Virus record (IMG/VR): IMGVR_UViG_2773857937_000001
Span: 2,960 to 66,959 of that record
Length of the DNA stretch: 64,000 nucleotides
Direction: 5' to 3' (one strand)
Source of the DNA: a virus
Shown: positions 196 to 9,985 of the stretch, piece by piece
How positions within the stretch are numbered: position 1 is the first letter of the stretch
Layout of the letters: every line of letters starts with the position of its first letter
Notes under the pieces: model-generated
Told to the model about the DNA's origin: nothing
Databases searched by the model: none
What the model saw: only the letters and a program-made list of their open reading frames with translations
Translations under genes and position numbers: made by a program

Positions 196-1047
196 ATGAA
201 GATGGAACTCAAAGCGGAAACTATCAAGCACCCAGCCATTCGCTACCATGGCGGGAAATTCCGCCTTGCATCGTGGATTATCAACCATTTCCCCGCCCAC
301 CGTTGCTATGTAGAGCCTTTTGGCGGTGCCGCATCGGTTTTATTGAGGAAAGCGCCCAGCGACGCGGAAGTTTATAACGACCTCGACGGCGATGTTGTGA
401 ACCTATTTCGCGTACTGCGTAGCCCCGATTCACGTCAGTCACTTATTGATGCGTGTGCTTTAACACCTTATTCACGTAGTGAGTTTCGCTGCGCGTATGA
501 ACAAACAGACGATCCCATTGAACAGGCTCGACGACTAATTGTCCGGGCAACGATGGGATTTGGTAGCGCCGGTGCAACAAAGAGCCGCACAGGTTTCCGG
601 TTGGACACAAAACGAAACAGTGCAACGGCCCAAAAAATATGGGCAAGACAGCCGGATAATCTGGCCGCTGTGGGTAGTCGATTCGCCGGGGTACTCGTTG
701 AAAATCGCGATGCTATTCAGTGTATGCAGGACCATGACACAGCGAGCACATTGCATTTTGTTGATCCTCCGTATGTGCATGATACCCGCGTTAACGTTGC
801 GAAAAACAGCGCATACCGTTTCGAGATGACAAATAACGAACATAGCGTGCTACTTGCCAGCCTAAAGGATCTGAGCGGGATGGTCATTGTGTGCGGGTAT
901 GACAGCGATCTCTATAACGATTCACTCTCGAGCTGGAAGAGAGTTACACGCACTACTGCGGCAAATGGGCATTCAGGTTCAGTGCAACGTACTGAATGTT
1001 TGTGGATTAACCCGGCAGCGCAACAAAGGCTGGACGGCAAACAATGA
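196..1047 (+). CDS. Dam-family (D12 class) N6-adenine DNA methyltransferase
   Basis: The 283-aa ORF carries the FGGAASV AdoMet-binding motif and the DPPY catalytic motif, with the HGGK/W dam-like N-terminus. It is paralogous to the C-terminal half of the 863-aa Dmt at 34904-37495. Confidence 0.75.
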   Translation: MKMELKAETIKHPAIRYHGGKFRLASWIINHFPAHRCYVEPFGGAASVLLRKAPSDAEVYNDLDGDVVNLFRVLRSPDSRQSLIDACALTPYSRSEFRCAYEQTDDPIEQARRLIVRATMGFGSAGATKSRTGFRLDTKRNSATAQKIWARQPDNLAAVGSRFAGVLVENRDAIQCMQDHDTASTLHFVDPPYVHDTRVNVAKNSAYRFEMTNNEHSVLLASLKDLSGMVIVCGYDSDLYNDSLSSWKRVTRTTAANGHSGSVQRTECLWINPAAQQRLDGKQ

Positions 1048-1394
1048 GCAGAAAAGAGCCAAACCCGACACCAGGTAAAGTCATTCGTCCGAATTTGCCA
1101 CCAAGAGTACCGGCCATGGGCCAAACCAGGACCAACGAAATGGAACAATACCCTGTTATTACAGACGCCAACCAGAGTATTCCAGGTATCAGATTACCGT
1201 CGATAGATATCTTGAACGCCTTAGATTATCGGATGGGCTGTTTAAAAAAAGGAATTGCACAGGTTGCTGAAAAACAGCCAGAAGAGGCGGAAAAACTTCA
1301 AGCGTTAGTATCGGAGCTAATTGAAGCTGGACAAGCACGAAAAGCCCTTAAGCGGCAAGCAATTTTCTTAGTGATTGAGGAGGCTCAGTCATGA
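1044..1394 (+). CDS. hypothetical protein (116 aa)
   Basis: Its start overlaps the upstream stop (ATGA), and it is packed tightly in a same-strand operon. Confidence 0.4.
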   Translation: MSRKEPNPTPGKVIRPNLPPRVPAMGQTRTNEMEQYPVITDANQSIPGIRLPSIDILNALDYRMGCLKKGIAQVAEKQPEEAEKLQALVSELIEAGQARKALKRQAIFLVIEEAQS

Positions 1395-1873
1395 AAATTG
1401 ACTATCAGGCGATACGTGAACGTTACTCTCCAAAGCCAGTTCCGAAATGCCACATTTGCGGCGCAGAAATGACTGTACAGCGTATGTCTGCCAGCCGCAT
1501 CACTTATGGGTGTACGGGGGCAACATACGACGATAAAGGTTGCCATTATGCCGCAGGGCGTAGTTTCGTGGACGACCATTATGAGCGGTCCTGCGTCACT
1601 GTCGTCGATGTTAGTGATCCAGAGGTGCTGGTGGTATTAGATGAACTTGAAGCCGCACAAAAGCTATTTGCAGAGGCAACGCTAAAGCTAATTAAGCAAC
1701 ACGCTTTACTGAATAAAGCCGAAATACACATCAAGGAAATTGAAGCACGGACTGTTTCGCTACCAGATGTAGAGAAATGGCGCTCCGTTGATGCTGTACG
1801 TGCTCAGAATGCTTACAAAGTTCTCGTTAGCAAAGTCCTTGCCGACATTGGCATAGCCATCGAGGAGGCATGA
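1391..1873 (+). CDS. hypothetical protein with N-terminal CxxC...C Zn-ribbon (160 aa)
   Basis: ORF with CHICGAEM...YGCTG cysteine pairs and an overlapping ATGA start. Confidence 0.45.
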   Translation: MKIDYQAIRERYSPKPVPKCHICGAEMTVQRMSASRITYGCTGATYDDKGCHYAAGRSFVDDHYERSCVTVVDVSDPEVLVVLDELEAAQKLFAEATLKLIKQHALLNKAEIHIKEIEARTVSLPDVEKWRSVDAVRAQNAYKVLVSKVLADIGIAIEEA

Positions 1874-1874
1874 G

Positions 1875-2186
1875 ATGGCGAGCAAATCACTATGGGCAAT
1901 AGTCGATTTCCTTCGGGTTAACCAAACCATCACGCCGCGCCAGGTTCAGAGCCTGCTGGGATGTGACAGTAAGAAATCACACAACCTGCTGCTTCACCTG
2001 GTGCGCAGAGCAGTAATTATTCGCGCCGGCGATCCGCATCACCCGGTCTATTCGCTGCAACCCGGCGGAGAACTGAATATCAAGCAGATCAAATCGAGCG
2101 TGCGAAAAAACATGGTCACATCAGTATGCCGCACAAGTCCTGCTATGCAGCGTGTATTGGCGTTTTACGGGAGAGGATCAGCATGA
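1875..2186 (+). CDS. hypothetical small protein (103 aa)
   Basis: Operon packing. Confidence 0.35.
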   Translation: MASKSLWAIVDFLRVNQTITPRQVQSLLGCDSKKSHNLLLHLVRRAVIIRAGDPHHPVYSLQPGGELNIKQIKSSVRKNMVTSVCRTSPAMQRVLAFYGRGSA

Positions 2187-2869
2187 CAGTCCATACAATT
2201 AAGCAATGCCGCCCTGACCAGAAAGAAACCGAGTATTTCTGGAAATTGTTTCATGCGGCGCAACGCAATGATGCTCGCTGGCACGGTAGTGAAATCAGCA
2301 TTATCGCCGATGAGCTGTCCCGAACGGATTTAGATCGTAACCAAAAGCTATTTCTTCTCCGCGCCTGGCAAGTGCTTGTAGACGACAAAGGAGGATTCGG
2401 GCGCTTTATGGGTGCTTTCGATACCTATGTCTACAACATGCAGGATCCTGATGATGATTGCGTCGCATGGAAGCCTGAACTTAGCAAACTGCTGTGTGAC
2501 GGGCAATTGTTGGACGTGGTTATCGATGCTTATCACTCTGCTCGCCAGCGCATAGCCGAACTGGAGGCGCGTGTATTCACTTCAGCTGCTCACGATGTAC
2601 TGGCAGAGCGCCAACGGCAAATCAACACGGAAGGCTGGAAGCCGGAACATGACGATGAGCACGTAGAGGGCCAACTTTCTGATGCTGCTGCATGTTATGC
2701 GTTATTCGCTACAGACCAAAGACGACCGGTTCCAGCGCACTGGCCATGGTCGGATGATTGGTGGAAGCAACGCGGTCAACGACGTGATTTAGTCAGGGCT
2801 GGTGCGCTAATCATTGCTGAAATTGAGCGACTCGACCGCGCCGCTGGCATTTGCGTGAATGGAGAGTGA
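2183..2869 (+). CDS. hypothetical protein (228 aa) with HDDEH acidic motif (possible NTP pyrophosphohydrolase-like domain)
   Basis: The start was moved to ATG 2183 (MTVHTIKQC), which is preceded by GAGAGGA. The C-terminus carries EHDDEHVEGQLSDAAACYA. Confidence 0.45.
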   Translation: MTVHTIKQCRPDQKETEYFWKLFHAAQRNDARWHGSEISIIADELSRTDLDRNQKLFLLRAWQVLVDDKGGFGRFMGAFDTYVYNMQDPDDDCVAWKPELSKLLCDGQLLDVVIDAYHSARQRIAELEARVFTSAAHDVLAERQRQINTEGWKPEHDDEHVEGQLSDAAACYALFATDQRRPVPAHWPWSDDWWKQRGQRRDLVRAGALIIAEIERLDRAAGICVNGE

Positions 2870-3290
2870 GATGGCATCCAAAATTTATGAAACCCACCTG
2901 GTGCCGATTAACAAAATGGCAGCAATCGTAACGGGTAAGGGCTTTGAGTATCAACCTAACTGCCTGATCAATTGTGATGAGTATGTCGGCCCGCCAGAAA
3001 CAGTGCCAGTAAAAGAGCTTGCTCTAAATCCTTCGTTTGTTGATCTAACTGGCCGAAAGAAAGGGCGTTTTACTGTAATCGGCCTGATGAAAGAGAAAAA
3101 AGGCAGTTGGTTAGTCAGGTGTGTGTGCGGAACGTATACCACGCGCTCTGCAAAATCTATCAAAGGGGCAGACAGCAACCCTAATTCACACCTGGATGCA
3201 TGCCGCCGCTGCATGCATGAGGCTTACCGTAAGCGGGAGTATATCTACCGTACCACAGGCAAAGATGTTGATCTTTCGGAGGTGTGGTAA
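2859..3290 (+). CDS. hypothetical Cys-rich protein (143 aa)
   Basis: The ORF contains CVCG...CRRC cysteine pairs. Confidence 0.4.
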   Translation: MESEMASKIYETHLVPINKMAAIVTGKGFEYQPNCLINCDEYVGPPETVPVKELALNPSFVDLTGRKKGRFTVIGLMKEKKGSWLVRCVCGTYTTRSAKSIKGADSNPNSHLDACRRCMHEAYRKREYIYRTTGKDVDLSEVW

Positions 3291-3321
3291 TGGCATCTTT
3301 GTTCAAATTGAGGACTAACCC

Positions 3322-3510
3322 ATGACAACTAATTACCTTACAGACGCTTCCATCGACGCTGCACTATTCTCTTCACTTGAGGGCTTCGCTTCTCTGGTGG
3401 TTAGTTCTATTGAGTTTGACCTCGGCAGAGAGCTGACGGAAGAGGAATGTCAACGTGTTTACCGTTATGCGGAAACGGCAATTACTAAAGGGCTAACCCA
3501 TGAGCAATGA
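3322..3510 (+). CDS. hypothetical small acidic protein (62 aa)
   Basis: The ORF lies in the operon. Confidence 0.3.
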   Translation: MTTNYLTDASIDAALFSSLEGFASLVVSSIEFDLGRELTEEECQRVYRYAETAITKGLTHEQ

Positions 3511-4231
3511 CCAGTTAACAAGCGAGAATCTGGACGATGAGACGCTGGCTGAATTGATTGAATTTCGCCGGACAACACTCAAGCACCATACAGATGAGGG
3601 GAACAAAACACAGGCCGTATTACACAATATGGTGCTGGTGGCATTGCTTGAGCTACAAGAACGCCGCAAGCCACAACGACCGGTAGCGTTCCTGAATGAT
3701 GCACATCTTAATCGCGGTTATGTCGAGGGTGGAGTAACGAGCGACGATGATGCGCCGGGGATGATTCCTGTATACCGGGAGCCAGTGGGCGTGGTCTACG
3801 TTAGTTGCCTGCCTGAATCAGAGTTTGATGAGCTACAGGAACGCCGCAAGGCTGATAGCGCTGAGCCGGTTTACCAATGGCGTGAGGCTTTTGAAGAAGA
3901 TTCGCTATGGGATGACTGCACCAAAGCTCAGTACGACGGATTCGCCAAAAAGACGGATTGTGAAGTACGCATTCTCTACACCACACCTCCAGCGCCGACA
4001 GTGCTGAGTACTACCGAAATCATTTCACAACTGGAGCAAGTTCTCAATTGGATACTGAATACGTTACCAGTGCCTACACCGCTGACAATACCAAATGCCC
4101 GACGGTTAACAAATGTGATTAATACCTGCCGCGCCGCCATGCTTCAGGGCGGATTCCGCGATTTATCACAACCAGTAGATCCGCAGGTTGCCGAATATGA
4201 GCAAATCATGCTTCAAGGTGGCGACAAATGA
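3500..4231 (+). CDS. hypothetical protein (243 aa) with internal ELQERRK duplication
   Basis: ELQERRKPQRP and ELQERRKADSA repeats, plus a PPAPTVL motif shared with the next ORF. Confidence 0.45.
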   Translation: MSNDQLTSENLDDETLAELIEFRRTTLKHHTDEGNKTQAVLHNMVLVALLELQERRKPQRPVAFLNDAHLNRGYVEGGVTSDDDAPGMIPVYREPVGVVYVSCLPESEFDELQERRKADSAEPVYQWREAFEEDSLWDDCTKAQYDGFAKKTDCEVRILYTTPPAPTVLSTTEIISQLEQVLNWILNTLPVPTPLTIPNARRLTNVINTCRAAMLQGGFRDLSQPVDPQVAEYEQIMLQGGDK

Positions 4232-4938
4232 TCGCGTTTACCCAAGAAGAGCTACAACGCATAGCAGATACAGATCACGTTCAATCCGGTGACGCTTCGG
4301 CAATAGCTCGCATGCTACTGGCATCGTTAAATGCTACCCCTATTTATCAGGTTCAATATGGACAGAAATGGAGAGATGTAACCAAAGAGCGTTATGAAGA
4401 CCATCGTGATCATGGTTCATCGACCCGTATCGTCTATGCCGAGCCACCAGCGCCGGTGGGCCTAGTTGATGATGCCTATTTAGAATCTTTAATAAAATAC
4501 CAAGAAGCGGAGTTGAAAGCGGCTGAATATGAACTGAAAAAAAATGCCACTCAAGCAATGGATTATAGTGCGGATCGTGAAATGCTAAAACGGCTGGCCG
4601 TTATTATGTCTGGCAATGATTCTCCGGGAGAAATTCGCTCTTTAACTGTCACTGCACAATCGCTGGTGGACCGTTGTAAAGCGCTGGCGCGGGATAAAGA
4701 AGCGTTGCCATCAGACATCTATACGCTTTGGAGACCAGCATCGCCAGATGAGATAAACAAACGCAGCATACGTGAGTCTACAAACATTGATTCCCCATCT
4801 CGCGAAGCCATTATTGCTGGTGGCGTTTTGGTCCAATGCCCTCGATGCGATGGTGATTCTTACCGTTTAAAATTTAATGGTTGGAATCATTATTGGTGCG
4901 ATAAATGTGCAAACGCCATTGCTTCGGAGGGGAAATGA
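4228..4938 (+). CDS. hypothetical protein (236 aa) with C-terminal CPRC...CDKC Zn-ribbon
   Basis: Overlapping ATGA start. It shares the PPAPVGL motif with the 3500-4231 product. Confidence 0.45.
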   Translation: MIAFTQEELQRIADTDHVQSGDASAIARMLLASLNATPIYQVQYGQKWRDVTKERYEDHRDHGSSTRIVYAEPPAPVGLVDDAYLESLIKYQEAELKAAEYELKKNATQAMDYSADREMLKRLAVIMSGNDSPGEIRSLTVTAQSLVDRCKALARDKEALPSDIYTLWRPASPDEINKRSIRESTNIDSPSREAIIAGGVLVQCPRCDGDSYRLKFNGWNHYWCDKCANAIASEGK

Positions 4939-5171
4939 ATATTCACGTTTTTTTATCTATTCTGGTTGTTTATTTCCTGGGATTTATTGGCATGTATTTC
5001 TATTCGCTAAAGCAGGATGAGGAATGTGACCTCGAAAGGAATCCAAAAGAAGCGCTATTATTCGCTTTATTTTGGTTTGTGCTCATTCCAATTCTGCTTA
5101 TCTGGATTGTAGTAGAAACAATTATTCACCTAGTACGCGCTGCATACAACCGGTATAAAAATAATGGCTGA
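4905..5171 (+). CDS. small membrane protein (88 aa, two hydrophobic helices)
   Basis: Hydrophobic segments LSILVVYFLGFIGMYF and ALFWFVLIPILLIWIVV. Confidence 0.4.
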   Translation: MCKRHCFGGEMNIHVFLSILVVYFLGFIGMYFYSLKQDEECDLERNPKEALLFALFWFVLIPILLIWIVVETIIHLVRAAYNRYKNNG

Positions 5172-5472
5172 TCTCCAACTGGCGGTGAAAGGCGAATACT
5201 TTGACGCGATGAAACGCGGTGTAAAACCCAATGAGTACCGATTATACAACGATTATTGGATTAAACGGCTGGTAGGCCGCTCATATGACCGCCTGATTAT
5301 TACCAGGGGCTATCCACGCAAAGACGACGCGGATCGGCGCATTGTTGTTCCGTATGACGGCTATGACATAGAGACAATAACCCATCCTCACTTTGGTTCC
5401 GAGCCGGTGAAGGTGTTTGCAATAAAGGTGAATATCAATGCCAAAATCGTTAAACATAGAGCATCTGCGTGA
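5164..5472 (+). CDS. ASCH/DUF3850-like small protein (102 aa)
   Basis: An EYFDAMKRGVKPNEYR N-terminal pattern like the ASCH/PUA-like fold. This is recalled, not searched. Confidence 0.35.
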   Translation: MADLQLAVKGEYFDAMKRGVKPNEYRLYNDYWIKRLVGRSYDRLIITRGYPRKDDADRRIVVPYDGYDIETITHPHFGSEPVKVFAIKVNINAKIVKHRASA

Positions 5473-6127
5473 AGTTGCAGCAAAGACAAAGAATGATGGT
5501 CAATTGGCCTACAACAAATACCCAAGAGGAATTAGAGTGGAAATTATCTTATCGGCTATGTCCCCGGAACTCGCTACTGCTTTTGATACAGCGTTTGCCG
5601 ACCTCGATAACTGGCGGGTAGTTCGCGGCCCATTCGAAAGCATTCAAACGTTTGATTGTATGGTTAGCGCGGCGAATTCATTTGGCCTGATGGACGGAGG
5701 CGTAGACGCAGCGATTACTGCTTTCTATGGTATCCATCTACAAAATCGCGTACAGCAGCACATCATTGCTGAATATCTTGGTGAGCAGCCGGTCGGTACA
5801 GCATTTGTAATTGGTACAAATCATGAGAAGCACCCTTGGCTGGTTCATGCCCCCACGATGAGGACGCCAGCGCTCATATCTGGAACTGATGCAGTATACC
5901 GTGCTACTTGGGCTGCGCTGGTGGCCATCCACAACCACAACAAGGAGGGTGATCGCATCACGACGGTTGTATTCCCTGCAATGGGAGCGGGTTGCGGTGA
6001 AGTGCCAGCAAAGAATGTTGCTGAACAAATGGCGTTAGCATGGCGAAATTTTCACGCGGTACCAACACTGATCAACTGGCCATATGCGTTTCAGAGATCG
6101 CGATTAGTTGATCAGTGTATAGGGTAA
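5438..6127 (+). CDS. macro-domain (ADP-ribose binding/processing) protein
   Basis: The SAANSFGLMDGGVDAAI motif and a later PAMGAGCGEVP glycine-rich loop are typical of macro domains. Confidence 0.6.
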   Translation: MPKSLNIEHLREVAAKTKNDGQLAYNKYPRGIRVEIILSAMSPELATAFDTAFADLDNWRVVRGPFESIQTFDCMVSAANSFGLMDGGVDAAITAFYGIHLQNRVQQHIIAEYLGEQPVGTAFVIGTNHEKHPWLVHAPTMRTPALISGTDAVYRATWAALVAIHNHNKEGDRITTVVFPAMGAGCGEVPAKNVAEQMALAWRNFHAVPTLINWPYAFQRSRLVDQCIG

Positions 6128-6197
6128 TAGGAATTGACAGCATGACTCAGCGCAATAATACTGTACATATGACCAGTGTTATTGCGCGAGGTATTCC

Positions 6198-6527
6198 GTG
6201 GGTTTTCCATCACCGGCAGCTGATTATGTCGAACGCCGCCTTACAGTAGACGATATCTGCCAGAACGACGCTAACTGCGTAACAATACAAACATCGACCG
6301 GCTACGCCGTTGTTAACCGCTCATTAAGGCCAAAACAGAGCAATCTGGTGCTGATCTCATTCTGTGGTCGAACTCACTTTGCGCGCGTAATGGGGCGGTC
6401 GCTGATAACTGACGACGGCGAAGCCATTGAAGGGGACGCACTTGATGATGTCAGTGTTACAGGCGTTGTGACTTTTCTCATCAACCGCGCTGTTAACACC
6501 GCCTCAGATGAATTACCAGTGGTCTGA
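6198..6527 (+). CDS. hypothetical protein (109 aa)
   Basis: ORF only. Confidence 0.3.
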   Translation: MGFPSPAADYVERRLTVDDICQNDANCVTIQTSTGYAVVNRSLRPKQSNLVLISFCGRTHFARVMGRSLITDDGEAIEGDALDDVSVTGVVTFLINRAVNTASDELPVV

Positions 6528-6556
6528 TCGCTCGGTTCTTAAAGGCACATTCCCTT

Positions 6557-7162
6557 TTATCCGTTCTGCACTTCGCGGATACGTTTAATCACGACTTCCC
6601 GAAGTTCGCTTAACGCGTTTGCTTCATTACCCAGCTTAGAGATAGACATCTCAAGTGCATTGCTATACCAGGCCAGTTGAGGCAAGTTCATGTGATTATG
6701 GTTGAGGGTAGGGGCAACCTCTACAATCTCGTTTTGTTCCTGTGCCAGCGAGTACGTATTCATTTCTTCCATTGTGGCGAACTCACCTACAATGACCTGC
6801 TGGTGGTCCGGACGTTGTGGCTGTCGGATGAGGACAAACGGTGGTTCTGTCGAGTACAGGAATATAGGTTTGGCGCGTGTTTTTACCCATTTAGCTTGTT
6901 TCTTTTCTGCCAGTTCACAGGCTTCATCATACGTGTCAGCTACACCCAGGAAAGAAGAGCGATCCCATGCCCCGCCATTGAGACAGCGAACCATAATTTT
7001 TCCGTCCGGTTGAGTAAGCCCATACGGATGGTCCCACCAGGCGTCGAGCTGGCTCTTAGAACGTTTGTCGTTTGGTGTAACGTCAAAATTGGCAGGTAGT
7101 TTAGGGTCCAGTGGAATACAGTTAGGCATAAATATCCTTTTTCCCGAAAGTGTTAGGTTCAC
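6557..7162 (-). CDS. hypothetical protein (201 aa)
   Basis: A long minus-strand ORF that converges on the upstream operon. It has an ATG with an AAAGGA-like RBS. Confidence 0.5.
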   Translation of the reverse strand: MNLTLSGKRIFMPNCIPLDPKLPANFDVTPNDKRSKSQLDAWWDHPYGLTQPDGKIMVRCLNGGAWDRSSFLGVADTYDEACELAEKKQAKWVKTRAKPIFLYSTEPPFVLIRQPQRPDHQQVIVGEFATMEEMNTYSLAQEQNEIVEVAPTLNHNHMNLPQLAWYSNALEMSISKLGNEANALSELREVVIKRIREVQNG

Positions 7163-7218
7163 AGAATACCCTGAAAAGGCTTTTTGATAACGTGAGAGTC
7201 AGAACAGAATAGAATCAT

Positions 7219-7256
7219 TTTGTTTGTATTGACAAACAAAAAACAAACTATTATAT
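7219..7256 (+). promoter_or_regulatory. sigma70-type promoter (TTGACA-16-TTATAT) overlapped by inverted repeat TTTGTTTGT/ACAAACAAA (operator-like)
   Basis: Read directly in the intergenic region between divergent genes. Confidence 0.45.
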
Positions 7257-7317
7257 TGCCCACATGGTGCTAAAACAGTGCCATCGCCCCGGCGCACCGG
7301 GCAACAGGAATAAAATA

Positions 7318-7689
7318 ATGAACAAATTACAAACAATCTCCGCCGATGACCTCTACTACAACACCGAATGGAATCCCGTTCAAAACATTGATGTAAAAAT
7401 TTGGGATGATCGTAACCAGGATTGCTATGGCACTGCCGATTTAACCTCAAAAGACGGCAAGACCTCCATTACGTTCCCATGGAAAATTAACTACACCTCC
7501 ATGGTATGCGGCGATGACGATATGCTGGAAATCTCCATTGTCGGCACACCTGAACTCAATTTGCCAGCCCAGGCTGAAACCTCATTACCTCTGTTAGAGG
7601 TTATGGAAGAACTGGACATGATTATTGGTATCAGCGCGCAAATCCGTAACCACTGGATCCACAACACGCCTCCAATTTTAGAGCAGTAG
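7318..7689 (+). CDS. hypothetical protein (123 aa)
   Basis: Start chosen at ATG 7318 (MNKLQTI) after AGGAATAAAATA. Confidence 0.45.
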   Translation: MNKLQTISADDLYYNTEWNPVQNIDVKIWDDRNQDCYGTADLTSKDGKTSITFPWKINYTSMVCGDDDMLEISIVGTPELNLPAQAETSLPLLEVMEELDMIIGISAQIRNHWIHNTPPILEQ

Positions 7690-7698
7690 GGATAGTTT

Positions 7699-7941
7699 AT
7701 GTCCGAAAAACCACGCGATCCGCGCAGTAAAAACCCTCTTAAAGAAGCCGTCGCAGCGACGGCTCATATACAGATGCGCGTAACCCCCGATCGTAAAAAA
7801 CGTTACGTCGCCCAGGCAAGGGCCGAGGGCATGAAGCTAACCGACTGGATCCAGAGCCATATGGATAACGTTTGTAATGAAGCTGGCCAGCCTGACACCA
7901 CTATGTACAAAGAGTACGGAGAGAGTCATGGAAAAGAATGA
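7699..7941 (+). CDS. small ribbon-helix-helix-like DNA-binding protein (80 aa)
   Basis: IQMRVTPDRKKRYVAQARAEGMKLTDWI resembles RHH (CopG/Arc) strand-helix-helix. Confidence 0.35.
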   Translation: MSEKPRDPRSKNPLKEAVAATAHIQMRVTPDRKKRYVAQARAEGMKLTDWIQSHMDNVCNEAGQPDTTMYKEYGESHGKE

Positions 7942-8617
7942 TCAGATAAATCAGGATGAAGTAAAAAGCGTAGCCCGTGCCGCACTGGATTACATTGATG
8001 CGCTTCCGAAGGAAGTTGTGGCGGCGCTGCCAGCAATGCCTGGTTTTGATCGAGATTGGGCTGAAAATGTGCTGGCTGATGTAACAAGCCCAACGGCCTT
8101 AATCCCGAACCATATGTTTTTCGACAATGACGATGAGCCGTATACAGTGCTACGTACTATCAAAGGCCTTCTGGAAATGCAGGGCTTTATCGTTAAGGAA
8201 GATCCTGAGCGCATGTTTGCGCCTGGTGCGCATGGCAATCAGGAGGCGCAGGCCGCTGCTACCTGTACCGCGTATTTTGCTGACGTACCGCGTGATGTGC
8301 TGGAGAAGGTGATCCCCACTGATAACCGTTTTAACATCGATATGTCAGATGTGCTGAAAGGTATTGGCATTGACTTAAAAGATGAGAAATTATGGCAGCT
8401 TTCCGACTCCATGACCAATACCGTCAATGAGCTGGCTAATTATCTTATAAGTGATGGCTGGACGCCTCACGAAATTACCTTTGATGGTCGCTATCGTTTC
8501 TCCAAGCAGGTCGGCGGTGAAATGCAATACAGGGATATAATTTCCCGCGTTGAAGGTAATGGCCCCACATTGAGAGCTAATGTGTGGGATGAAGCTGTCC
8601 AGGTAGAAGGGAAATAG
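7928..8617 (+). CDS. hypothetical acidic protein (229 aa)
   Basis: Start moved to ATG 7928 (MEKNDQ), which has a GGAGAG RBS and an ATG..TGA overlap with the upstream gene. Confidence 0.45.
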   Translation: MEKNDQINQDEVKSVARAALDYIDALPKEVVAALPAMPGFDRDWAENVLADVTSPTALIPNHMFFDNDDEPYTVLRTIKGLLEMQGFIVKEDPERMFAPGAHGNQEAQAAATCTAYFADVPRDVLEKVIPTDNRFNIDMSDVLKGIGIDLKDEKLWQLSDSMTNTVNELANYLISDGWTPHEITFDGRYRFSKQVGGEMQYRDIISRVEGNGPTLRANVWDEAVQVEGK

Positions 8618-8619
8618 CG

Positions 8620-8931
8620 ATGAGCAAAACAGTATTTTTGGTGGAGGTAGAACCTTTCAAGGTCTGCGGCCCTGAAACGGAAGTAGGTAAGTTTGTCTTT
8701 GAGCGCGATCTGGTGGAGGAAACGCCAACGCACTACGTTGTAACGAGTCTGGCGCGTTCTGAGGAGGTTGTGAAGTTTTCCCGCCGTGAGTGCGTAGCAT
8801 TTGATACTCGTGATGAGGCGTTGCTACACCTTGAGCGCATTGTGCTTAATAAAATGCAGGGGCTGGAAGACGAGCTGGGGAAATGGCAGCACTTCATTGA
8901 CTCTGTTGATGATGAACTCCGGAAATCGTAA
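8620..8931 (+). CDS. hypothetical protein (103 aa)
   Basis: ORF 3 nt after the upstream stop. Confidence 0.45.
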   Translation: MSKTVFLVEVEPFKVCGPETEVGKFVFERDLVEETPTHYVVTSLARSEEVVKFSRRECVAFDTRDEALLHLERIVLNKMQGLEDELGKWQHFIDSVDDELRKS

Positions 8932-8941
8932 GTAGGACAAA

Positions 8942-9985
8942 ATGAAAGCCGTCATCACTCCCTTTGTCCAGAAAGAGTTAGGTCTTGCCACATTCAAGAT
9001 AGATGATGATGTAGCGCGGCTGATAAGTTCTGGCCGTAAATTCATTATGGAACCTGTCGCACGTGAGCTGGTGGAGCATACAGAAGACGGGTTAATCCAT
9101 ACCGAGCAGTCAATGGCCACTAACGAAGCACTGCGACCTTTTTTCACTAGCCCTGACGTTTTCCGCCGCTTAGGTGGTCTTGATTCGCTGGTGGCATATC
9201 TGCGTACGCATGTTTCAAGTTGCCAGACTGCCGCTCCTGGTTGGTGTGACAACAAGCTAACCTATACAGAGCGTAATGATAACGCGGTAGTCTTATGCTG
9301 GCATCACGACAACCACTATATGATGCGTGGCTTTACCGAACTCGCTCCAACTCTATACCGTAACCGTGTGGACTGGATACTTGAAACCGCGCGAACCGAG
9401 ATGGGACTCCCGTCTGGCCGTGACCTTAGCATTCAGGAGCTTTGCTGGTGGGCGTTCATGCGCAACATGATTGATCAGGTGCCGGAGGAGATTTGCCGCA
9501 TCGCTATCAATAAACTGAAGGAAAAGCAGGATACATCGGGAACGACCAAGGAAGCTGATATCAAGCCATATGATGACCGTGCTATTGCATACGTCAGACA
9601 GATGGAAGAAAAGGCGGATCCTATGCGCGCGAGGGTATGTCCGGTAACAGTTGAGCCAGACCCCGGCATGGCATATTTCAAAAGACCGAAGCTACAGCCA
9701 TTAAAACTGCCTAATTATCTCTCATTTGTTGCATCCAGGCCGTGCTGTGGGTGCGGAGCATCCGGGGAGAATGCCAACATATCTCCCTATCTGGTACTCA
9801 ATAAGCGGTTATGCGCACACGACACATACGCAATTCCACTATGCCTAGCATGCCAAAAGGAAATAAGGCGTGATCGGAGCGGATGGGAGAATAAGCACGG
9901 AAAATTGGCTGTACACCAGCGTGTATTTTTTGATTACGCCCAGGGAATTGGCGCTATCACAAGTCATGAGTCAGCTAATAACTAA
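8942..9985 (+). CDS. hypothetical protein (347 aa) with C-terminal Cys cluster CCGCG...CAH...CLAC
   Basis: ORF with a probable zinc-binding C-terminus. It sits at the position of the pap/pmg genes upstream of lpa in P1. Confidence 0.5.

Follow-up and report, generated by a model that had tools for sequence, protein, structure and literature searches.

What kind of macrodomain is encoded just upstream of humD in a P1-like phage-plasmid, and does it act together with the ASCH-like gene that it overlaps? The locus lies in a window of 64,000 nucleotides (nt), the whole stretch of DNA that was analysed (positions 2,960 to 66,959 of the IMG/VR virus record IMGVR_UViG_2773857937_000001), recognised as a P1-like phage-plasmid by DNA comparison. 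A sequence-only reading of this DNA had called two open reading frames (ORFs), one for an ASCH/PUA-like protein and one for a macro-domain protein, and had suggested that the second reverses DarT-type or other ADP-ribosylation or degrades ADP-ribose-derived signals, with the first as a nucleic-acid-binding partner. Both ORFs were recovered on the + strand, at 5164-5472 (102 amino acids, aa) and 5438-6127 (229 aa), with a 35-nt overlap, and the phage accessory setting proposed for them held as well, the two genes lying within the variable stretch upstream of humD. The answer developed below is a macrodomain of the Macro2/Ymx7-like class, most likely shorter than the longest ORF and carried as a mobile one-gene cassette.

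The macro ORF matched the Pfam family Macro (PF01661; E 6.8e-17 and 61.9 bits, the cutoff being 22), residues 76-198 corresponding to profile positions 1-118, with Macro_2 (PF14519) as a secondary match (E 1.3e-5; 25.1 bits, gathering threshold 27) that is also among the precomputed domains of many macro homologues. It falls in phrog_2613 (E 1.7e-85) and also matches phrog_14717, annotated 'tail protein' (E 1.4e-54). The first motif is VSAANSFGLMDGGVDAAI (N80-SFGLMD-G87-G88-V89-D90), a MacroD-style N-x6-GG-V-D; the signature previously written as SAANS..L..GGGV..AI is present, with GGV in place of GGGV. The GAG glycine loop was found as FPAMGAGCGEVP (G183-A-G-C-G187). Across 55 homologues (31-85% identity) G187 never varies and the conservation of N80, G88 and D90 is 90% or higher, and in the closer relatives the block FDCMVSAANSFGLMDGGVD and the loop FPAMGAGCG do not vary; the ADP-ribose pocket therefore looks functional, and the product is, judging from these motifs, a macrodomain with its ADP-ribose-binding and catalytic residues intact. 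The AlphaFold2 (AF2) model of the 229-aa form has a mean predicted local distance difference test score (pLDDT) of 92.9 and a predicted template modelling score (pTM) of 0.85, with residues 34-229 above 90 and residues 1-30 between 53 and 71. Foldseek returned 140 PDB matches at E<=1e-3 and a three-layer alpha/beta macro fold; the matches listed were all macrodomains or proteins designed on the TTHA0132 macrodomain scaffold, in agreement with the domain originally proposed.

The best Foldseek match in the PDB was yeast Ymx7/YMR087W (1njr; E 8.5e-11, template modelling (TM) scores 0.64/0.59, 199 columns), the second TTHA0132 (E 1.5e-6), followed, at roughly 2e-6 to 1e-5, by MacroD-type enzymes, macroH2A and DarG. 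A search of the PDB sequences with a hidden Markov model (HMM) of the 55 homologues placed the same two proteins first (1njr, E 3.6e-15) and next (TTHA0132, E 1.3e-10), the 1njr alignment covering positions 2-176, from an extra N-terminal strand through the glycine loop. By sequence profile and predicted fold the macro protein is thus classed as Macro2/Ymx7-like. This clade has been described as poorly studied (PMC5413906); YMR087W is its only studied member, converting ADP-ribose-1''-phosphate to ADP-ribose and showing no activity in removing mono-ADP-ribosylation (de-MARylation) (PMC6397177).

Membership in the DarG/AdfM class was considered and rejected: the PADLOC DarG model reached E 0.048 and 11 bits, DarG ranked 8th by fold in Foldseek with 18% identity, and tblastn against 50,697 phage records returned no T4 match and, in PhiPA3, matched gp271 and not gp108. 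Reversal of a DarT/DarG-type modification, given as an example in the sequence-only reading, consequently loses its footing, the best relative, Ymx7, being reported without de-MARylating activity. The relatives detected in jumbo phages (PhiPA3, Noxifer, FBKp24, RTH11) are distant, with about 32-36% identity, and are often annotated 'tail protein'. The one in PhiPA3, gp271 (246629-247162), is separate from the DarG-like AdfM gp108, and PhiPA3 therefore carries two macrodomain classes.

The limits of the gene could be drawn from its nearest relatives. Only three protein clusters were closer than 66% identity (P0001, 98%; P0002, 85%; P0003, 83%), and their contigs (L004-L009) provide three genomic contexts: the P1-like L009, with the order ASCH then macro as in the window; the P1-like L004-L007, with the order macro then ASCH and an 8-nt overlap; and L008, a different phage, in which the macro gene, not far from the terminase, has a ParB-methyltransferase fusion on one side and a 239-aa gene on the other. 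At the DNA level the window resembles L004 (83%) and L008 (84%) only in 5521/5528-6118/6132. Window/L009, L004 and L008 are identical from about 4 nt 5' of the GTG at 5537 and unrelated further upstream, and a Shine-Dalgarno-like (SD-like) AGG(A/G)A stands 8-10 nt upstream of this GTG in all of them. Across bacteria, proteins of the family begin at positions equivalent to residue 33-35, and the guanine-cytosine (GC) content is 39% in 5438-5536 versus 50% in the core. Given the homology limit, the SD/GTG arrangement, the family starts, the low confidence of residues 1-30 in the model and the GC content, the functional macro protein is most likely the 196-aa product that starts at GTG 5537.

The 35-nt overlap is probably an artefact of two ORF extensions, one at the macro start and one at the ASCH end. 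The ASCH ORF has 102 aa in the window versus 91-96 aa in its relatives, its nine additional codons arising because the TAA present in L009 (5727-6008) reads AAA in the window. Of the overlapping upstream ASCH/PUA-like ORF originally described, the ORF itself therefore stands, and the overlap probably does not.

In the sister Citrobacter plasmid L001 an unrelated 98-aa gene occupies exactly the slot of the macro cassette, between ASCH and humD; the place is a cargo-exchange site. Taken with the homology limits, the macro gene is best described as a one-gene mobile cassette made of a ribosome-binding site (RBS) and the 196-aa ORF. At the end of the macro gene, AGGAGGTTGCTGGTGGCTGAT is common to L004 (6585-6612) and L008 (4745-4775); in L004 it comprises the RBS and first three codons of ASCH, and in L008 it begins the unrelated 239-aa gene, which argues for a recombination breakpoint just inside the start of the neighbouring gene. 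A megablast search with 4800-6600 matched only the flanks and returned no phage or plasmid record carrying the macro gene.

On the downstream side, TTGACA-17-AATACT at 6134-6162, directly past the macro stop, agrees with a promoter at 10 of 12 positions, and TACTGTACATATGACCAGTG (6159-6178) matches the annotated P1 LexA site TACTGTATAAATGAACAGTA at 16 of 20 positions and at the same distance from humD as in P1, about 20 nt upstream. In the promoter and terminator scan the counts were not above those of shuffled sequence; the one site that can be trusted is this one upstream of humD, since its position is homologous to that of the LexA operator of P1. In this divergent P1-like element SOS regulation of humD seems, by analogy with P1, to have been kept. 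As humD would thus have a LexA-type promoter of its own, the macro gene would be the last gene of the upstream rightward operon and lie outside the humD unit. The coordinates of these features are collected in Table 1.

Table 1 Features of the macrodomain locus, in coordinates of the window.
Feature	Position	Strand	Remarks
ASCH/PUA-like small protein	5164..5472	+	102 aa; resident gene of the locus in P1-like plasmids, outside the macro cassette
Junction DNA between ASCH and cassette	5438..5536	+	33-codon N-terminal extension in the longest-ORF call; probably outside the functional protein
Conserved ribosome-binding region of the cassette	5521..5536	+	AAGAGGAATTAGA before the GTG
Macrodomain core ORF (predicted)	5537..6127	+	196 aa from GTG 5537; Pfam, AF2, Foldseek, profile and conserved columns
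Promoter-like site and LexA-box-like sequence for humD (GTG 6198)	6134..6178	+	Downstream boundary of macro

The ASCH-like ORF matched no Pfam or NCBIfam family at E<=0.1; it falls in phrog_625 (E 1.2e-42), and its name comes from homologues called 'ASCH domain-containing protein' by NCBI. Its AlphaFold model (pLDDT 84.9; residues 95-102 below 50 and disordered) gave a Foldseek top 15 consisting entirely of ASCH structures, at weak E values (0.03-0.5), and an ASCH beta-barrel fold is predicted with moderate confidence. Identity to known ASCH proteins (3iuw of E. faecalis, PH0355, PF0470, Z. mobilis ASCH and the E. coli ac4C amidohydrolase YqfB) is 12-24%. Homologues form 465 protein clusters and occur in 332 phage records without macro (Stx and other lambdoid phages, beside EaA; Jersey-like Salmonella phages; the Escherichia phage P1-named record MH445381.1), and nine Citrobacter plasmids have one with no macro gene next to it. 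Conversely, ASCH was found within 4 kb in none of the 80 IMG/VR loci that encode the nearest macro relatives, and tblastn of ASCH against 86 macro loci gave matches in the P1-like ones only. The notion of a nucleic-acid-binding partner is not borne out by these counts: a functional pairing of ASCH and macro is possible but unsupported, and a cargo hot-spot beside a resident gene accounts for the adjacency equally well.

The structural half of the window shows 73-79% DNA identity to P1 and Salmonella plasmids and 83% to Cronobacter phage JK004. To the left of ASCH and macro, tightly packed on the + strand, are genes for a Dam-like methyltransferase, Ead/Ea22-like proteins, several unknowns and an 88-aa membrane protein. 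In its variable region the element is a mosaic, with lambdoid 'ea'-type accessory genes set into a P1-like backbone: the stretches 196-1047, 1391-1873 and 2859-3290 comprise a D12 methyltransferase of Dam-like type, an Ead/Ea22-like protein and a small HNH-related protein, and the EaD/EaA genes of Salmonella phage 29485 share 88% identity with window positions 4801-4939. The predicted membrane protein (4905-5171; two hydrophobic stretches, GC 38%) lies directly 5' of ASCH and is conserved with a 77-aa ORF of L009; in L001 a 77-aa ORF (5977-6210) holds the same position within the homologous block. To the right of macro, 6198-6527 encodes the HumD/UmuD'-like protein, beyond which a DUF968/PdcB-like gene and the packaging genes follow as in P1. 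Just past humD on the - strand, 6557-7162 encodes a 201-aa protein (phrog_6164, E 1.9e-111) with a homologue annotated 'DNA-binding protein' in a Citrobacter plasmid; this gene might correspond to lxr, which P1 has on the opposite flank of humD. No ADP-ribosyltransferase (ART), sirtuin, TIR or KptA domain was found among the neighbouring ORFs domain-scanned in 196-9985, nor was a second macro copy found within the window, for example in the element's own tail-fibre region.

The macro family is large: an exhaustive search at E<=1e-3 gave 2341 cluster representatives, 1248 of them reaching E<=1e-10, and most are stand-alone proteins of 190-220 aa. Cellular homologues (45-57% identity) are common in Chloroflexota, Cyanobacteria and Planctomycetota, and no recurrent ART, Sir2 or TIR gene was found among 112 neighbouring ORFs of 76 of them. 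The sole recurrent neighbour was a FemAB-family protein (aminoacyl-tRNA-dependent peptidyltransferase) of about 360 aa (13 of the 112 ORFs; L099-L171, Anaerolineae/Chloroflexota), which probably reflects lineage synteny in Anaerolineae or else may hint at a tRNA-related link. Domain fusions in distant homologues (WD40, DSPc with rhodanese, RRM, Hpt) gave no coherent signal.

The nearest phage relatives (61-66% identity) have a different habit. In the IMG/VR scan, for which an alignment-based search was used after a single-sequence pattern had found nothing, the gene lay between the side-tail-fibre gene (stf) and tfa in 79 of 80 loci (L010-L089), and it has the same position in Gifsy-1 (L002 3498-4322, STM2588.1n), L003 (4016-4918), the Salmonella phages SEN4/SEN5 and E. 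coli phage-plasmids. These prophage genes, also present in E. albertii phage-plasmids and annotated 'macro domain-containing' or 'phage tail protein', have invariant active-site blocks and belong to PHROG 2613; most encode 253-300 aa with a Cys/His-rich C-terminal extension of GAHSH/HxH-type repeats and a few encode 203 aa in the same slot, whereas the window protein lacks the extension and is encoded in the early variable region, not in a tail-fibre operon. Start/stop overlaps with the flanking genes were seen in the stf-tfa copies, and their HxH-type repeats are reminiscent of fibre tips. A neighbour-joining tree put the window protein together with P0001-P0003 on a branch separate from, and next to, the stf-tfa prophage clade, and nothing relevant on a characterised macro protein of a tail-fibre locus was found in the literature searched. 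Shorter relatives occupy other slots. Those of 209-218 aa (L090 5001-5657; L091 and L092 5001-5630) are found in lambdoid prophages, directly upstream of holin-endolysin-spanin genes, where Stx phages have the Stx toxin gene, and the lysis genes of L090 and L091 are followed by a gene that weakly matches the Acb2/Tad1-hairpin family of Pfam. Another, of 216 aa (L093 5001-5651), is set within a myovirus baseplate module, with Dit-like/Pam3_gp18 genes on one side and E217_gp41, Apex, sheath-initiator and Baseplate_J genes on the other, a setting consistent with virion association of some family members.

The account that we favour is that of a mobile one-gene Macro2-type cassette at a P1-like cargo hot-spot, acting as an early counter to NAD+/ADP-ribose immunity; taken whole, it may well be right and may equally fail, and the counter-defence role that had been suggested for the gene is its most reasonable reading. 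In the early variable region the cassette would have entered the hot-spot that separates humD from the resident ASCH gene, and its product would be made early, from the last gene of a long rightward operon, with the ASCH protein next door acting independently. The macro protein would bind the ADP-ribose moiety, hydrolyse a group at the 1''/2'' position of the distal ribose and blunt NAD+/ADP-ribose-based host immunity. Because the nearest characterised relative is Ymx7 and no partner transferase was found, the substrate would more likely be a soluble ADP-ribose derivative (candidates are ADP-ribose-1''-phosphate, O-acetyl-ADP-ribose and an ADP-ribose-derived (ADPR-derived) immune signal or by-product) than a DarT-type DNA adduct. 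The gene is just of the kind treated by Iyer et al. 2022 (PMC9503650): Macro genes that stand alone in phage early regions or morphogenesis clusters, whose main task, these authors argue, is to counter soluble ADPr derivatives.

Several points weigh against this account. The Macro_2 score is just under its gathering threshold, and identity between the window protein and Ymx7 is only about 20%. The substrate range of a macrodomain is not readable from sequence, phosphatase activity on ADP-ribose-1''-phosphate (hereafter Appr-1''-p) is a generic in-vitro activity of many macrodomains, and the MacroD-style N-x6-GG-V-D fits de-MARylation of protein or nucleic acid equally. Early expression would follow from gene order and analogy with P1. 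The closest relatives, at 61-66% identity, sit in tail-fibre, baseplate or pre-lysis positions, and the ancestral role of the clade may therefore be virion-tied or late and not that of an early soluble enzyme. Lastly, the adjacency of macro and ASCH in both gene orders is not fully explained.

Four other explanations were weighed. That the protein is a de-ADP-ribosylase directed against DarT or another ART toxin is unlikely, even though phage macrodomains with that role exist (T4 Tk.4/AdfM and the AdfM proteins PhiKZ gp104 and PhiPA3 gp108), the catalytic-type Asn and Asp of N-x6-GG-x-D are conserved, and the DarG macrodomain (5m3i) is a detectable structural neighbour (E 5e-6, TM 0.48): the family-model and tblastn results given above place the protein in a different class, its nearest characterised relative is reported without de-MARylation (PMC6397177), and the cellular homologues are unpaired with transferases. 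A two-gene module, in which ASCH binds (modified) RNA or DNA and targets or assists the macrodomain, for example in RNA repair or in removing RNA-linked ADP-ribose, we hold to be very unlikely. It would suit the adjacency in P1-like elements in both orders (the window and L009; L004-L007), the 3' junction of the L008 cassette, at which the RBS of the ASCH gene and its first three codons are kept, the RNA links in the literature (YqfB as ac4C amidohydrolase; Appr-1''-p from tRNA splicing, PMC6397177) and one distant homologue that is an RRM-macro fusion. The occurrence of each gene without the other speaks against it, as do the lysis or baseplate genes that adjoin the other short relatives, the homology blocks, in which the macro gene moves alone, and the viral NAD/ADPr network of Iyer et al. 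2022 (PMC9503650), in which ASCH is unmentioned.

A role in the virion or tail, with the protein on or in the particle or acting on the tail fibre or receptor and not as an early cytoplasmic enzyme, draws on the stf-tfa position of nearly all the nearest IMG/VR relatives and of the Gifsy-1 and E. coli plasmid copies, on the relative inside a baseplate module, on the phrog_14717 'tail protein' match and on the virion packaging of Macro proteins inferred by Iyer et al. (PMC9503650). We give it a slim chance for the window protein, which is without the Cys/His-rich extension of the tail-fibre-locus forms, is encoded in the early variable region, with roughly 30 kb or more separating it from the tail genes, and branches separately with P0001-P0003, all from non-structural contexts. 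Improbable too is a lysogen-benefit or housekeeping enzyme with no part in phage counter-defence, which would clear ADP-ribose-1''-phosphate or O-acetyl-ADP-ribose or shield the host from the ART toxins of competitors: the closest characterised homologue is indeed a metabolic Appr-1''-p phosphatase, the Chloroflexota and Cyanobacteria homologues look like stand-alone chromosomal genes, and some relatives occupy the classic moron slot upstream of lysis genes, but E. coli-type hosts already have macrodomain enzymes such as YmdB (1spv, 5cms), and the gene behaves as fast-moving cargo among anti-restriction-type neighbours (methyltransferases, ParB-methyltransferase fusions). A wider proposal extends counter-defence to the enterobacterial Ymx7-like phage clade, meaning the window cassette together with hundreds of stf-tfa or baseplate-module copies, which would destroy an ADPR-derived immune signal (for example gcADPR or His-ADPR of Thoeris) or an undescribed ADP-ribosyl adduct and would be delivered by the particle or made at entry. 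We rate it as decidedly unlikely; if true, both the substrate of this macrodomain class and its mode of anti-defence would be new.

Among the ADP-ribose-processing domains of phages the macrodomain is the commonest, and stand-alone macro genes in early or virion regions have already been catalogued, so that no new principle is put forward here. What is added is the assignment to a Ymx7-like and not a DarG-like class, a revised model of the gene, its behaviour as a cassette and the residence of its relatives in tail-fibre operons. In the literature searched, the phage macrodomain proteins found with a counter-defence function were DarG-like AdfM only, and the class of the window gene is essentially unstudied while being very common among the prophages and phage-plasmids of Salmonella and E. 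coli. Being compact, self-contained and easy to clone, the 196-aa cassette would therefore be a convenient entry point to the function of the class, the possible substrates of which include soluble ADPR derivatives, immune signals and macromolecular adducts, and its study could help to explain why most relatives sit in tail-fibre operons.

Compared with known systems, the window protein shares most with Ymx7 (1njr, 1txz, 1ty8): the extra N-terminal strand-helix (MRIILCD.. versus M(E/K)xILSA..), the VSxxNS(F/Y)GxxxGGxD block and the PG/A-x-G-x-G-VPP loop. Ymx7 differs in being a 284-aa protein with insertions, and it is a eukaryotic housekeeping protein tied to tRNA-splicing by-products, whereas the window protein is phage cargo. 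TTHA0132 (2dx6), YmdB, the O. iheyensis MacroD and human MacroD1/2 are second-tier matches, which share the N-x6-GG-x-D and G-x-G loops but score below Ymx7 and are without the N-terminal strand-helix and the HAPTMR motif of the window family. AdfM (T4 Tk.4; PhiKZ gp104, PhiPA3 gp108) is, like the window protein, a stand-alone phage macrodomain with the same superfamily fold; AdfM and DarG, however, form the DarG/TARG1-like (ALC1-like) class with a catalytic Lys, from which the MacroD/Macro2-like motifs of the window protein, along with its family model, fold and tblastn matches, set it apart.

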